Of a DNA stretch of 64,000 bases, positions 9,063 through 63,950 are shown piece after piece (the stretch's first letter is position 1; the number at the start of each line of letters is the position of its first letter). The notes beneath the pieces are model-generated. The model was not told the DNA's origin and did not search any database. It was given only the letters and a program-made list of their open reading frames with translations. Position numbers and translations under genes: made by a program. Origin of the DNA: Escherichia phage VEc33; the sequence record NC_048818.1; one strand, written 5' to 3'.

Positions 9063-9091
9063 ATTATACCAGTATATGCAGTAAAAAGCAA
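9063..9091 (-). promoter_or_regulatory. Sigma70-type promoter, minus strand, for phoH (-35 TTGCTT, 17 bp, -10 TATAAT)
   Basis: Plus attata 9063-9068 and aagcaa 9086-9091; divergent from the nrdD promoter. Confidence 0.6.
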
Positions 9092-11276: not shown

Positions 11277-11305
11277 TTGCTTTCAGCCAAAAATTTATAT
11301 ATAAT
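11277..11305 (+). promoter_or_regulatory. T5-type early promoter (TTGCTT, 17 bp, TATAAT, downstream AGATTTATAAATTTGAGAGGAG)
   Basis: TTGCTT 11277-11282, TATAAT 11300-11305; SD then ATG 11334. Confidence 0.7.
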
Positions 11306-17965: not shown

Positions 17966-17994
17966 TTGCTTTCAGGAAAATTTTTCTGTATAAT
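17966..17994 (+). promoter_or_regulatory. T5 early promoter, PN25-like (TTGCTT, 17 bp, TATAAT, AGATTCATAAATTTGAGAGAGAGGAG)
   Basis: TTGCTT 17966-17971, TATAAT 17989-17994; sequence matches from memory the classical T5 PN25 promoter. Confidence 0.8.
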
Positions 17995-18993: not shown

Positions 18994-19022
18994 TTGCTTA
19001 ATCCTACAATTCTTGATATAAT
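18994..19022 (+). promoter_or_regulatory. Sigma70-type promoter (TTGCTT, 17 bp, TATAAT)
   Basis: TTGCTT 18994-18999, TATAAT 19017-19022; AAGGAAA SD before ATG 19080. Confidence 0.6.
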
Positions 19023-20210: not shown

Positions 20211-20239
20211 TTGCTTTCAACTCAGTTTTGTTATATAAT
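20211..20239 (+). promoter_or_regulatory. T5-type early promoter (TTGCTT, 17 bp, TATAAT)
   Basis: TTGCTT 20211-20216, TATAAT 20234-20239; downstream ATTTATATAAATTAATGAGAGGA. Confidence 0.7.
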
Positions 20240-56962: not shown

Positions 56963-58176
56963 TCTTTATCTCCCTCGGTGGAACCTTGAGGTCTACCACC
57001 TTCTTGACCAGATACACCTGTTGCAGAACCAGCAACGTTAGCAGGAATACGAATCCTATCCATCTGCTCATCATCTAAAGGTTCAAGGTTCAGCTCTAAA
57101 CGAGCTTCGTTACCAGTCATAATACCATTATTAACCAATGAGGTTAAATGTTTAGCCTCAGCTTCTTTATCTGGTGTTAATGCAGCTACTTCCTTAGTAT
57201 TAGGAGTAATCTTATAACCAAAAAAGAAAGTAAGAGAACTAGTCAGTTTGTTCAGCATAGGAATGATAGTCATATAATAGAACAATTCGATGTTTGGTCG
57301 AATATTCGCATTATTACCACCATCAAGCAGTACTTGCGGAACTCCAAAGGCTAGACAAATAGATTTATTAAATCCTTCGATGTCTTCCTTAAAGTCTAGA
57401 TCTTTAAAAGAGGATATTTGGGAGTACGGTTTAGCTTTCATACCACCATCTAGAATCAGGACAGAAGACTGACCAGTACTAGGATTATAATCGAGTTGTA
57501 ATTCTTCTTGTTTACGCTCACGCAATTTCTTGTTCAGGATTTCATCCGTCTCAAGAATAAGACCAATCACGGTTCCGTTATCTAGGAATTTCTCTTTAAA
57601 GTTAAGCATTTTAGAACGCTTTTCAAGAGAGTCAATAACAGTAGCAACACGAGATTGTCCAGAAATTTGAGAATTTGTGCCACACACGTAACTGTTATCC
57701 TTTATAAAGATAATCTCATCTACGCGATAGTTTATCTGATTATTAAATATAAATTTTTTGATAAACTTATTGGCATCTGCCTCGACCTGCATAAGAGCAG
57801 CCGGGACATGGTAAAGCGATGTGCCATCCCAATAGATGTATGCACAACCTTCAAAAAGTAGGTCAGTGACTACAAGCCTACGGAATGTGCTTATATCCAT
57901 GAATGGATTAGGTCGTACATTTAAGAGAGTGTCTAGAGTCTTTGTTTTGACGCCATTAGCGTACGTAACAATATTATATTTATCTCCGACAGTATAAGAA
58001 CACTCCGCCGCACTATCTATAACCATATTGGCAGTTCGATTGAGAATCTCAATCTTGCTATAGGCTTGTCCAGTGGTAAAAGGCTTACGGTTAGTGCGAT
58101 GACTAACTGGTTCCATGTCTCTTATAATACGTTGACCCGGATTTAGCTTTTCAGTAATCCAGCTTTTAAAACCCAT
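56959..58176 (-). CDS. Portal protein
   Basis: 405 aa, between terminase-side genes and protease, matching T5 portal size and order. Confidence 0.75.
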   Translation of the reverse strand: MGFKSWITEKLNPGQRIIRDMEPVSHRTNRKPFTTGQAYSKIEILNRTANMVIDSAAECSYTVGDKYNIVTYANGVKTKTLDTLLNVRPNPFMDISTFRRLVVTDLLFEGCAYIYWDGTSLYHVPAALMQVEADANKFIKKFIFNNQINYRVDEIIFIKDNSYVCGTNSQISGQSRVATVIDSLEKRSKMLNFKEKFLDNGTVIGLILETDEILNKKLRERKQEELQLDYNPSTGQSSVLILDGGMKAKPYSQISSFKDLDFKEDIEGFNKSICLAFGVPQVLLDGGNNANIRPNIELFYYMTIIPMLNKLTSSLTFFFGYKITPNTKEVAALTPDKEAEAKHLTSLVNNGIMTGNEARLELNLEPLDDEQMDRIRIPANVAGSATGVSGQEGGRPQGSTEGDKE

Positions 58177-58613
58177 TATAAGAACCTTGCGAATCCTGAT
58201 TTTATTTCAGTCTTGACTTGTGTCTTTTCTTGAGGATTCTGTAATTTGTCTTTCTGCTTTTGAACCCACACTTTTTGCTTATTAGCAGAAAATAAAGGAG
58301 GTTCTTTTGTGTAAACCTTATGTAATAGTTGGTGATGGTGTACACAAAGGGTAACAGTGTCTTCTACTAGCTCATACCTATATCGATCATAGAATGCCGT
58401 CCTATTTGAAAGGACTGTTTCTTCGTCAGTGAAATCCAATTGGAGTTCTTTAGCAAATTTTTTAACTAGTAGAGACACCGTATGGTAATGATGAAGCTCT
58501 AATTCTTCAGCACAACCGCAGATAGCACATTGAGAGTCTTTTTTATATTGACTTTTTATTCCGTCTCTCATAAGGGATATAGCATCGCGTCTATATTTTA
58601 TATTGCTTGCCAT
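58176..58613 (-). CDS. HNH endonuclease next to the terminase genes
   Basis: ATG 58613 with GGAGAA SD; His/Cys cluster CAICGC...LHHYH...CVHHH typical of HNH. Confidence 0.65.
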   Translation of the reverse strand: MASNIKYRRDAISLMRDGIKSQYKKDSQCAICGCAEELELHHYHTVSLLVKKFAKELQLDFTDEETVLSNRTAFYDRYRYELVEDTVTLCVHHHQLLHKVYTKEPPLFSANKQKVWVQKQKDKLQNPQEKTQVKTEIKSGFARFL

Positions 58614-58727
58614 AGTGTTCTCCTCAACTGTATGAATATAGTATACATAATCGTATCGAATTTGTAAAGGGGATTTTAAAATGCAGGAATGGGATACCAA
58701 CTGAGTAGTATCCCATCCTATACTTAT

Positions 58728-60536: not shown

Positions 60537-62294
60537 TTAGGTAAGGCGTTGAACTGTTACTCTTAATCTAGGTAGGAAAACTGCGCTACCCAAACTCACG
60601 TGCATAACTACTCCTAACTCTACGTTTCCGTTTCCTAGATTTTTAACAGTATATATAAAACTGTTTCTACTTAGAGCATTGTTAGGTGTATATCTAAAAG
60701 CAGATGTAGTATGAAAAGGTACTAGATAGCCCACAGGTAGCGTTAAAATCTGGTGGAATATTGCATCCCCGCCGCTATAGCTATATGCTCTTCTTCCTTG
60801 AACTTGGAACACACCATTATTCCATGTATTAGCGGGAACACCCGCACAATTAAGATTACCTGATATAACTTCAGTAGTAAGAATTACTGTAGCATTTCCG
60901 CCTGGTATACCTAGCCCAATAGTTGATAGACCAACGTATCTATCACCCGTTCCTGGGTAGCTGGGAGTAATATCATCCCCCATATAAGAACTACCTACAT
61001 TTCCACCAAAAAGTCGCAGTGGAACTGCTGATGGTCCCCAAACAACCCCATGCTCGTTACCAATAGTATTATCATTAGAGTTTACATACCACTGTTTACC
61101 TACTCCGAACCTATAAATGCTAATCTGTGATTTAGCCCCCCCATAATCTACAGGAGACCATAATCCTCCATTACTAGACCCTACAAGTTCACACCTTGCC
61201 GTGGTATCACCAAAAACTCCGGTATACGCTGCGTTATTCCCTATATACTCCATATCAGGACGGTAACCTAGGTTACCAAAAGCATTCTGATTTATAAATT
61301 TATACCCGGTATTAGGGAGACTTACCCCTTTAATTATGAAGTTAGAAGGAGATATAAGAATATCAGAACCAGTAAAGGGGTTGCCTGAAATACTCATTCC
61401 ACCATTCGAGTACCTTAAATTAAGAACATACCAAATAACCTTAGTAGGAGTTATATTATACCAGTCCTGTAGTATTGTAGAGTCACCCGACTGGTTGGCC
61501 AGATTAGTAGTAGATCCCCTACAAACAAATCTATTACCGCCGTCGTGGTACATAGTATTTACATTACCTGGGAGCCCTTGTCTAACTCCACCATATCCAC
61601 GTATATTAGAATTACAAACATAAAACCAATCATGCCCTCTATGTGCTGCTCCTAGGGGCGACATCCATCCAGGATCCCAATAGTACGGGTTATTGCCATC
61701 TACAGGTACTGTGCTACTATTAGTAGGAAAACCTAATTGTGCAAAGGCTTCTGCAACAGTAACACCTACAGGAGCTCCCGCACCGGGCCTAACTATCCCA
61801 TGATAGGTACTATGTAACGTAGTACCCCCTGTACCACTCCTAGAGATAGATTCTTCATGCCCTAGAGAGGGATTATAATTATAAGTGCCAGATGCTAGAC
61901 TATTACCAAATGCAAATCCACTGGTTTGAGAAACACTAGCAAAAGATCTAAAGGGATCAGCTTGAGTGGCAACTATAGTTTGACCAACTTGAGATTGAGT
62001 ACCATTAAGAAAAGCCCTATGAGTACCATTAATTTCAACAGCAGTTAGTATAACTCTACCGGGATCGTTAGATTTAATATTTATTATGTCAGAGGGCATC
62101 TGACATACAAAAAACCCATTTCCGGCATTACCTAACCCAGCCTCGTAAGTACCATCAACTAGGACAAATGGCATATCACTATGAAAAATACTATTATTAT
62201 TTGGACTATAGTGACGATTAATGTCACCCCCAGATTCAGTATTTAAAGATAGTACGGTCTTACCATCGCTATACTTTCCAGCGAAAAAACCCAT
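60537..62294 (-). CDS. Putative receptor-binding protein (pb5-like tail tip adhesin)
   Basis: 585 aa, Gly/Asn/Ser/Thr-rich; divergently paired with a lipoprotein gene as in the T5 oad-llp arrangement. Confidence 0.55.
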
Positions 62295-62319
62295 ATAATC
62301 TCCTATTATAAAAATGTAT

Positions 62320-62348
62320 TTGCTTTCATCCCTCTATTTTGCTATAAT
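62320..62348 (+). promoter_or_regulatory. T5-type early promoter (TTGCTT, 17 bp, TATAAT, AGATTCATAAATT) for the lipoprotein gene
   Basis: TTGCTT 62320-62325, TATAAT 62343-62348; near-identical to the promoter at 17966-17994; GGAGAG SD then ATG 62380. Confidence 0.75.
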
Positions 62349-62379
62349 AGATTCATAAATTAGAAATGGAGAGATAAAT

Positions 62380-62652
62380 ATGAAAAAGTTTGTGATTGCA
62401 CTAGTTGCCGCAGTTATGTTATCTGGTTGTGCACCTGCACCTGCTCCCAAACCATTTTGTACGGGATTTGTAAAATCTTTTGGGGGTGCGGGAGAAGAAC
62501 ATTACGGTCTCAAGGTTCAAAAAGTTCGTATTAAGGGAGATCGCTTTCCAGTAGTACAGCTCCGTACTAAGTTTGGATGGTGGGATCTCAGTCAGTTCGA
62601 TCTTAAATATGGTGATTGTAAATTTAAACTAGAGCAATCTAATTACCTGTAA
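62380..62652 (+). CDS. llp: Lipoprotein, likely Llp-type receptor-blocking protein
   Basis: Signal peptide with lipobox LSGC, Pro/Ala linker; expressed from an early promoter next to the RBP gene. Confidence 0.6.
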   Translation: MKKFVIALVAAVMLSGCAPAPAPKPFCTGFVKSFGGAGEEHYGLKVQKVRIKGDRFPVVQLRTKFGWWDLSQFDLKYGDCKFKLEQSNYL

Positions 62653-62828
62653 TTAGTATAAAGCAAAAAGACATCCAAGTAAACTAAATTTTTTATTTCT
62701 TGGATGGTGTACTGGCAGAAACCACTATATGAGAAAAGTTGAAGTCCTTCTAGGAGTTCACAGGCACGGTTGGTTGCGCACAAATTGTAGAATATTTTAA
62801 ATACCACACTTATAGGAGCATGAAAGAT

Positions 62829-62957: not shown

Positions 62958-63064
62958 TGGGATGGATAATTATTGCGTTGCTAGGGATTGTGATTATCGG
63001 GCAATGTATTTTAGATAATCACTTAGCTAGAATTGAAACTTTACTAACGGAGAAACGTAAATGA
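62957..63064 (+). CDS. Small membrane protein (35 aa), not in ORF track
   Basis: ATG 62957; hydrophobic GWIIIALLGIVIIG; stop overlaps next start (ATGA). Confidence 0.4.
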   Translation: MGWIIIALLGIVIIGQCILDNHLARIETLLTEKRK

Positions 63065-63255
63065 TGGAAGTAGTAGCTACACTAATAGTAATACTAGTCT
63101 GGGCAACTTTCATTGTTTCTTATAACGCGTATATTCGCCTAAAAACCCTAGAGGCTCAGGTAAACCAGCAACAATTTGCCATAGAAAAATTAGTAGAGCT
63201 GCAACGTTGTGATAGCACTCGTATTCTGCAAATTGAGAGGGAATTAGATGTTTAG
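63061..63255 (+). CDS. Small membrane protein (64 aa) with N-terminal TM helix and coiled-coil tail
   Basis: ORF track; TM VVATLIVILVWATFIV then charged helix. Confidence 0.45.
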   Translation: MMEVVATLIVILVWATFIVSYNAYIRLKTLEAQVNQQQFAIEKLVELQRCDSTRILQIERELDV

Positions 63256-63466
63256 TATTATAATTACTTTTATTATCGGGATACTCGCGGGAGTTTTCGG
63301 GACGACTGCGGCAATCAATAAGCATCGTAAATATATTGCGGAAGTATCGCGGGAGATTGCGGAAAGGGAGCGGAAGTTTGACGAGAAACGTGCGGAGTTT
63401 GAGCGGGAGTGGAATGATGGTTCAAGAAGTTCTAGGAGGAGATTCAAGATAAATGGCAAGTCATAA
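63248..63466 (+). CDS. Small membrane protein (72 aa) with N-terminal TM helix and Arg/Glu-rich tail
   Basis: ORF track; TM IIITFIIGILAGVFGTTAAI. Confidence 0.45.
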   Translation: MFSIIITFIIGILAGVFGTTAAINKHRKYIAEVSREIAERERKFDEKRAEFEREWNDGSRSSRRRFKINGKS

Positions 63467-63950
63467 ACCTCTACTTCCCTTAGTCGAATACCAGAAGAAA
63501 TTTGATTATGATCCTGAAACCGGTATGTTTACCTGGAACTCAGGAAGTCGTAAAGGTAAGCCGGCAGGCGGTAGAGAGAAAGATGGTATAACTCTTTACA
63601 TGGGCAAACTCGGGAGATTTAAGGCACATCGTGTAGCATGGCTCTACATTACGGGAGAAGATCCAGGAGATTCTCTCATTGATCATAAAGACCAAGATCC
63701 CTTCAATAATAAGTGGGAGAATCTTCGTAAAGCTTCACACGCAGAGAATGGTAAAAACTCCTCGGGGTGGAAGAATGAGTCTACAGGGGTCAAGGGAATA
63801 ACTCTTACAAGCTCGGGAAAATATCGGGCAAGAATCAGAGTCGATGGCAATATGGTAAATATAGGAACTTTCGGAAGTCTTGAAGAAGCTATTTCAGAAC
63901 TCAGTGCAGCTCGTGAGATTCTCCACGGTGAGTTCGCTAATACCGTTTAA
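63453..63950 (+). CDS. HNH-family homing endonuclease-like protein with AP2-like domain
   Basis: KAHRVAWLYITGEDPGDSLIDHKDQDPFNNKWENLR (HNH-like) plus GVKGITLTSSGKYRARIRVDG...FGSLEEA (AP2-like); paralog of 24727-25260. Confidence 0.7.
   Translation: MASHKPLLPLVEYQKKFDYDPETGMFTWNSGSRKGKPAGGREKDGITLYMGKLGRFKAHRVAWLYITGEDPGDSLIDHKDQDPFNNKWENLRKASHAENGKNSSGWKNESTGVKGITLTSSGKYRARIRVDGNMVNIGTFGSLEEAISELSAAREILHGEFANTV

Follow-up and report, generated by a model that had tools for sequence, protein, structure and literature searches.

T5-like phages encode the receptor-binding protein (RBP) of their tail tip beside a small lipoprotein, Llp, and accounts of the biology of such modules have been published by Mondigler 2006 (cited after PMC4728585), by Golomidova 2016 (PMC4728585) and by Maffei 2021 (PMC8594841). 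In T5 the two genes are oad, which encodes pb5, and llp, and the receptor is FhuA. The pb5 loops L1 (Gln115), L2 (Phe170) and L4 (570–590) insert into FhuA, and T5 Llp binds the periplasmic face and the plug of FhuA and closes the extracellular loops allosterically, a type of mechanism that the authors propose extends to other TonB-dependent transporters (PMC9586334). Structures for comparison are 8B14/8A8C (pb5–FhuA) and 8A60 (Llp–FhuA). Phage BF23, whose receptor is BtuB, carries hrs and llp (DQ097178; work of Mondigler et al. 2006, cited after PMC4728585). DT57C and DT571/2 pair a divergent hrs with an llp of the BF23 type. For these phages, dependence on BtuB and cross-exclusion by Llp have been demonstrated experimentally: resistant host mutants had btuB lesions, and DT57C Llp cut the plating of DT57C-type phages and of BF23 more than 100-fold, with T5 unaffected (PMC4728585). 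A receptor-blocking function is also reported for BF23 Llp (PMC4728585). Among T5-like RBPs, binders of FhuA, of BtuB and of FepA are known, and the receptor is described as predictable from the RBP cluster (PMC8594841, S3B legend). Here we examine the corresponding gene pair of Escherichia phage VEc33, which occupies positions 60,537 to 62,652 of the window, that is, of the whole 64,000-nucleotide (nt) stretch of record NC_048818.1 that was analysed (one strand, 5' to 3'). We are highly confident that the pair is a T5-like host-recognition and lytic-conversion module, made up of an RBP that would bind BtuB and an Llp that would block it. What the analysis shows directly is the structure of the genes, their homology and fold, the class of the promoter, and that the RBP belongs to the BtuB cluster. 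The module is already known at three levels, namely the exact sequence (VEc33), the family (BF23-type hrs–llp) and the mixed RBP/llp pattern (DT57C).

The two open reading frames (ORFs) are divergent and are separated by 85 base pairs (bp), with the following layout (aa, amino acids):
60537–62294, minus strand: gene for the receptor-binding tail-tip protein (hrs/oad type), ORF of 585 aa, pb5 family, BtuB-binding group
62380–62652, plus strand: llp, ORF of 90 aa, predicted receptor-blocking lipoprotein precursor
62295–62379, no strand: divergent intergenic control region of 85 bp, with ribosome-binding sites for both genes

The 585-aa product begins with MGFFAGK and ends with QRLT, and the 90-aa product opens with MKKFVIALVAAVMLSGC. 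The Shine-Dalgarno sequence of the RBP gene is AGGAG (written ctcct at 62300–62304), and that of llp is GGAGAG (62368–62373). The intergenic 85 bp are approximately 97–100% identical to those of BF23 and DT57C, and conservation with T5 is recognisable. The RBP gene lies directly upstream of terS–terL on the same strand and diverges from llp, as in annotated T5, BF23 and DT57C; it is the first gene in the late rbp–terS–terL transcription direction and is followed on its 3' side, on the same strand, by the genes for the small and the large subunit of terminase, a small ORF with an HNH motif, and the portal gene. An earlier note on this DNA had described a Gly/Asn/Ser/Thr-rich protein of 585 aa, placed head to head with a small lipoprotein gene in a layout mirroring T5 oad–llp. 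That description stands: the four residues make up 39.5% of the protein (Gly 14%), the gene order matches annotated T5, and the promoter class is common to both phages.

By exact-sequence look-up, the RBP corresponds to QFG06221.1 / YP_009853082.1, "receptor-binding tail protein [Escherichia phage VEc33]", and Llp to QFG06222.1 / YP_009853083.1, "receptor-blocking protein [Escherichia phage VEc33]"; both proteins are identical to those of the VEc33 record from first to last residue, and nothing differs. Their 90%-identity clusters hold 231 (RBP) and 124 (Llp) members. The phage DNA collection used for comparison excludes the VEc33 record itself; its best RBP matches are VSe12 (99.1%), followed by phiAPCEc03 and IrisVonRoten (both 98.8%), and the flanking DNA is 93–96% identical to several Tequintavirus genomes. 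Some short records labelled Listeria phage (OR846838.1, OR849067.1 and others), or Campylobacter by organism name, match RBP/llp at approximately 97% identity. These Tequintavirus sequences are almost certainly mislabelled records or contaminant contigs and not evidence of such hosts.

The large protein is a pb5-family RBP. It aligns with T5 pb5 end to end at 30% identity (residues 1–585 against 1–640, BLASTP E-value 5e-56), is 67% identical to BF23 Hrs, and has conserved termini in common with pb5 (M-x-FFAGK ... LP...QRLT); the pb5 length of about 640 aa given in the earlier note is correct. A phmmer comparison with the pb5 chains of the Protein Data Bank (PDB), 8b14_B and 8a8c_B, gives E-values of approximately 5e-51, and the protein falls into phrog_4815 (E 2.9e-275), the family that also takes in T5 pb5. 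A local Pfam scan of the RBP returned no family; PF26860, which its homologues carry in precomputed annotation, is newer than the Pfam copy used. An AlphaFold2 model from 28 homologues has a pLDDT (predicted local distance difference test) score of 84 and a predicted template-modelling (pTM) score of 0.87. In a Foldseek search of the PDB with this model, 8b14_B matched at E 5.1e-30 (template-modelling (TM) scores 0.64/0.68) and 8a8c_B at E 2.9e-27. TM scores to these two chains, both pb5 bound to FhuA, are 0.62–0.68, and all other PDB matches score 0.11 or less.

Within this family, the identity of the VEc33 RBP to its relatives is bimodal across the phage collection, at 55–99% to one large group and at most 30.5% to the rest, including T5 and S131. 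The high-identity group contains IrisVonRoten (98.8%), DT57C Hrs (74%), BF23 Hrs (67%) and the RBP of Yersinia phage phiR2-01 (55%), and the RBP of DaisyDussoix (Bas31) falls into the same 90% cluster as that of VEc33. BtuB dependence has been published for BF23 and DT57C (PMC4728585) and for phiR2-01 (PMC8624392). For IrisVonRoten (Bas32) and DaisyDussoix, S5 Table of the BASEL study lists BtuB as the terminal receptor, the receptor calls coming from top-agar assays on receptor knock-outs that include a purpose-built btuB mutant (PMC8594841), and IrisVonRoten is also termed BtuB-dependent in PMC10373560. IrisVonRoten and DaisyDussoix are isolates different from VEc33, and the flanking DNA of the nearest relatives is approximately 93–96% identical. 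At the level of sequence, the RBP thus clusters with BtuB-dependent phages and apart from the FhuA binders T5 and S131. Because identity is 67–99% to known BtuB binders and only about 30% to FhuA binders, the receptor can be narrowed to BtuB, which is most likely the receptor of the VEc33 RBP. This agrees with the suggestion in the earlier note that the phage may target a receptor other than FhuA, for example BtuB or FepA.

The RBP gene is also where VEc33 departs from BF23 and DT57C, as sliding nucleotide identity shows for one segment:
60580–62260, minus strand: RBP gene body, exchanged cassette of the 585-aa subtype

Identity to BF23 and DT57C falls to 0.42–0.83 per 100 nt within this body against 0.9–1.0 in the flanks, which include roughly the first dozen codons of the RBP gene together with the intergenic region, llp and its downstream spacer. 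Since only the RBP body diverges from BF23 and DT57C, several RBP subtypes share one llp, and by these alignments at least three (585, 586 and 595 aa) combine with one and the same llp. BF23 Hrs is the 595-aa subtype, and DT57C has a third subtype of 586 aa. The same pattern of divergent hrs and conserved llp was described for DT57C by Golomidova et al. 2016, with a recombination point between hrs and llp (PMC4728585); the breakpoint in DT57C and DT571/2 lies at the hrs start and intergenic region. In a four-way protein alignment, the VEc33 RBP is least like BF23 Hrs at residues 151–210 (identity 0.33), 241–270 (0.47) and 91–120 (0.57); it also diverges at approximately 530–545, and indels occur at about 115, 172 and 537, so that low identity and indels fall within 91–120, 151–270 and 530–545. 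By alignment to the published pb5 loop positions (PMC9586334), the variable segments fall on L1 (tip Gln115), L2 (tip Phe170) and L4 (570–590). The N-terminal 90 residues, residues 271–450 and the C-terminal strand are conserved. From this alignment, we infer fixed parts for virion attachment and the core fold, and variable receptor-contact loops.

Several considerations weigh against the assignment of the module to BtuB. Binding and blocking of BtuB are deduced from relatives and not from VEc33 itself, and the proposed jamming of BtuB from the periplasm would be an extrapolation. Wherever a segment aligns with a receptor-contacting loop of pb5, the 585-aa subtype departs from BF23 Hrs, and the contacts that BF23 makes on BtuB can therefore not be transferred to VEc33. 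Finally, one paper docks an RBP of the same cluster, fp01 gp108, onto FhuA, although in silico only and with BtuB left unconsidered (PMC9961651). The loop divergence could mean that the 585-aa subtype has swapped all its contact loops so as to engage BtuB in a way unlike BF23 Hrs, an idea that we hold to be very unlikely. If so, the altered engagement might concern other extracellular loops of BtuB, a dual Salmonella/E. coli range, or even the Llp-jammed conformation, and it could allow partial escape from exclusion by resident BF23-type phages while the phage carries the same Llp.

A receptor such as FepA, or another TonB-dependent transporter, with the likeness to the BtuB group reflecting descent only, is very improbable. 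T5-like RBPs exist for FhuA, BtuB and FepA alike (PMC8594841), the segments aligned with the pb5 contact loops are the most divergent ones relative to BF23, and the receptor-group comparison covered BtuB binders and the FhuA binders T5 and S131, with no FepA binder named. However, the receptor is reported to follow from the RBP cluster (PMC8594841), and members that are 98.8% identical use BtuB. Moreover, llp has been kept essentially identical to a BtuB blocker, an obvious constraint that would be senseless if the receptor had changed.

Binding to FhuA in the manner of T5 pb5, with the lipoprotein blocking FhuA, is the one alternative that has backing in print, but we give it hardly any credence. 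The RBP is indeed a pb5 homologue, and Vasquez et al. 2023 docked fp01 gp108, of the same 90% cluster, onto FhuA (PMC9961651), but that study reasons from likeness to pb5 and mentions BtuB nowhere (0 mentions). Against FhuA stand the 30% identity to the FhuA-binding pb5, compared with 67–99% to BtuB binders, and the near-identical RBP of IrisVonRoten, a phage whose listed terminal receptor is BtuB. The cognate Llp is of the BF23 type, for which T5 plating is unaffected and BtuB-dependent phages are blocked (PMC4728585). Given the BF23-type llp, the BASEL receptor table and the 30% identity to pb5, the published in-silico assignment of fp01 gp108 to FhuA is doubtful and probably wrong.

The second gene of the module encodes a lipoprotein of the Llp/Cor family that matches BF23 Llp, a protein already studied by experiment, apart from a 2-aa insertion. 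The lipobox LSGC named in the earlier note passes Pfam LPAM_1 with 23.9 bits against a cut-off of 20 and places the predicted lipidation site at Cys17. The signal peptide comprises residues 1–16 (with the lipobox, MKKFVIALVAAVM-LSGC), the mature protein starts with Cys17 at 62428, and the residue at +2 is Ala and not Asp, which predicts sorting to the outer membrane. All 88 aligned residues are identical to BF23 Llp, and the sole difference, an inserted Ala-Pro, is encoded by one repeat:
62431–62442, plus strand: GCACCT GCACCT tandem, a 6-nt duplication with one copy more than in BF23 and DT57C

The tether of the mature protein consequently reads CAPAPAPKP in VEc33 against CAPAPKP in BF23 and DT57C (90 versus 88 aa in total); DT57C Llp, also 88 aa, has one substitution relative to BF23 Llp. 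Over its 273 nt, VEc33 llp shows seven single-nucleotide differences from BF23 llp besides the in-frame 6-nt insertion. In the collection, which leaves out VEc33, 396 phage records contain this Llp, all at less than 99% identity, and every other listed member of the Llp cluster is 88 aa long. The Ala-Pro duplication is the only VEc33-specific detail of the module. Its effect is probably slight; under the very unlikely idea of swapped RBP contact loops, it could be a linked adjustment.

With eight 90% clusters, the Llp family is a narrow one. Cys17, the predicted lipidation residue, is invariant across nine cluster representatives, as are Cys27 and Cys80 (mature Cys11 and Cys64; 9/9). T5 Llp and BF23 Llp have been termed non-homologous (PMC4728585, PMC10644984). 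T5 Llp has 77 aa, the sequence similarity of its mature part to VEc33 Llp is not significant, and hhalign of a nine-sequence Llp alignment against mature T5 Llp gives an E-value of 0.2, with a shallow alignment (effective number of sequences, Neff, 1.6). However, both proteins match phrog_1119 over their full length (VEc33 Llp E 1.5e-26, T5 Llp E 1.1e-19), and both have their first internal cysteine at mature position 11, which in T5 Llp forms a disulphide with Cys58 (PMC9586334). These two features point to a shared origin of T5 Llp and BF23-type Llp, or at least to a shared fold and mode of action. The predicted fold of VEc33 Llp is closest to T5 Llp with modest similarity; identity of fold is suggestive and not proven. 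A PDB sequence search with Llp gave matches at the level of the signal peptide only (for example 9rps_D, "Phage lipoprotein", E approximately 1), and these were rejected as evidence. Taken with its identity to BF23 Llp outside the insertion, the phrog_1119 membership in common with T5 Llp makes the protein a probable receptor blocker, as had been proposed. That it instead has another envelope role, for example as an outer-membrane spanin component or an unrelated moron, we dismiss almost completely: it is a small outer-membrane lipoprotein without an enzymatic motif and its fold similarity to T5 Llp is modest, but it is identical to a BF23 Llp for which blocking is reported, belongs to one PHROG family with T5 Llp and Cor, and has an early-type promoter and a constant pairing with the RBP gene, neither of which fits a lysis gene.

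That promoter lies between the two genes:
62320–62348, plus strand: llp promoter, T5 early (PN25) class, −35 TTGCTT, 17-nt spacer, −10 TATAAT

The −35 hexamer is at 62320–62325 and the −10 hexamer at 62343–62348, with TG at 62340–62341 and a spacer that ends in TGC; in the BF23 record DQ097178, identical hexamers are marked as −35 and −10 of llp. Across the 64-kb window an exact search for TTGCTT-N17-TATAAT finds eight sites, against 0.02 expected:
2042–2070, 2874–2902 and 9063–9091, minus strand: TTGCTT-N17-TATAAT sites
11277–11305, 17966–17994, 18994–19022, 20211–20239 and 62320–62348, plus strand: TTGCTT-N17-TATAAT sites

Most of them have an A+T-rich upstream block, and a Shine-Dalgarno sequence and ATG 20–35 nt downstream. 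The eight sites would together map the putative strong early promoters of the window. The sequence that we take to be PN25 is found in T5 at 63048–63117 with 100% identity, where T5 records annotate a promoter. Its orthologue in VEc33 is the site at 17966–17994, which is an exact PN25 core. The llp promoter has both hexamers in common with this orthologue, as well as all 13 of the 13 nt after the −10 hexamer (AGATTCATAAATT) and an A+T block upstream (80% in the llp promoter). By sequence, llp is therefore placed behind an early-class, PN25-like promoter, as the earlier note had it. A generic sigma-70 promoter scan missed the llp promoter, as TTGCTT matches TTGACA at only three of six positions, and a generic terminator scan found none near llp. 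Inside the RBP gene, the generic scan gave no more hits than the shuffled expectation, and those hits were set aside. A hairpin at 62672–62706, in the spacer after llp (CATCCAAG ... CTTGGATG), is weak, with z of approximately −2 on both strands. It was rejected as an llp terminator on account of this z value and of the U-tract 3' of the stem, which is on the minus strand and not on the llp strand.

The borders of the module become visible in comparison with T5. Sliding nucleotide identity to T5 is 0.85–1.0 up to approximately 60560, a stretch that covers the last RBP codons, drops to a background of about 0.5 over the RBP gene, llp and the following spacer, and is back at 1.0 at about 62800. 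The spacer belongs with the module:
62653–62795, plus strand: BF23-type spacer 3' of llp, completing the exchangeable module

Here identity to T5 is 0.15–0.5 up to 62780 and 1.0 from 62800, and identity to BF23 is approximately 0.9 throughout; similarity to T5 picks up again at about 62795–62800. Between about 60560 and 62795 the module DNA cannot be aligned to T5, and this segment is an exchangeable cassette as described for BF23 relative to T5. With BF23, the module has the order, orientation and promoter hexamers of the pair in common, along with the approximately 90% identical downstream spacer. With T5, it has in common the architecture, the adjacency to terS, the promoter class, the RBP fold (TM 0.64–0.68), the Cys pair and the two PHROG families. 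T5 differs in its receptor, FhuA, in its 640-aa pb5 with 30% identity and in its 77-aa Llp.

A mechanism can be proposed from the close relatives BF23, DT57C, phiR2-01, IrisVonRoten and DaisyDussoix, on which the BtuB-binding argument draws. The 585-aa RBP would sit as a single copy at the tip of the straight (pb4) tail fibre, and its distal loops would enter the extracellular lumen of BtuB, the TonB-dependent transporter of vitamin B12. This binding would be irreversible and, to judge from the close relatives, would commit the phage to DNA ejection. Host RNA polymerase would read llp from its strong PN25-class early promoter. After export and lipidation at Cys17, the product would, by analogy with the same relatives, be directed to the outer membrane, into its inner leaflet, where it would stop further binding of RBP to BtuB, as BF23 and DT57C Llp suggest. 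Llp may do so by binding BtuB from the periplasm and fixing it in a conformation that prevents RBP binding, a step for which the T5 Llp–FhuA structure is the only model. Superinfecting BtuB-dependent phages would in this way be excluded, and progeny would be spared adsorption to cell debris.

Two further sites around the module differ among T5-like phages. Between the portal gene and terL, the small ORF at 58176–58700 (minus strand) has an HNH-like Cys/His motif (CAICG...HHY...HHHQLLH) and stands at the place of T5.153, where the DT57C annotation gives sciA nicking endonuclease; its likely true start is an internal ATG (MASNIKY...). At the 58700/58728 junction, between this ORF and terL, T5 has the 834-bp endonuclease gene T5.154 and DT57C a 519-bp unannotated gap in the same interval ahead of terL. 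The VEc33 window has neither insert, which makes the junction another variable endonuclease site. On the other side of the module, an HNH endonuclease gene of 165 aa at 63453–63950 (plus strand; Pfam HNH_3 E 7e-12, phrog_99 E 6e-55) comes after four genes for small membrane proteins, sharing 14 nt with the end of the fourth. Similarity to T5, BF23 and DT57C ends at approximately 63420, where those phages enter their terminal repeat, and alignment through to 64000 is seen only in some relatives (VAH1, PH204 and SSP1). From this distribution, the gene resembles a homing-endonuclease insertion of variable occurrence, placed where the right terminal repeat has its edge.

The main value of these results is bookkeeping, and they imply no new biology. 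They confirm that the rbp–llp cassette can reveal which receptor a T5-like phage uses. VEc33 should be treated as a BtuB-dependent phage, which bears on the design of phage cocktails, because loss of btuB would lead to cross-resistance with the many other T5-like phages that depend on BtuB.

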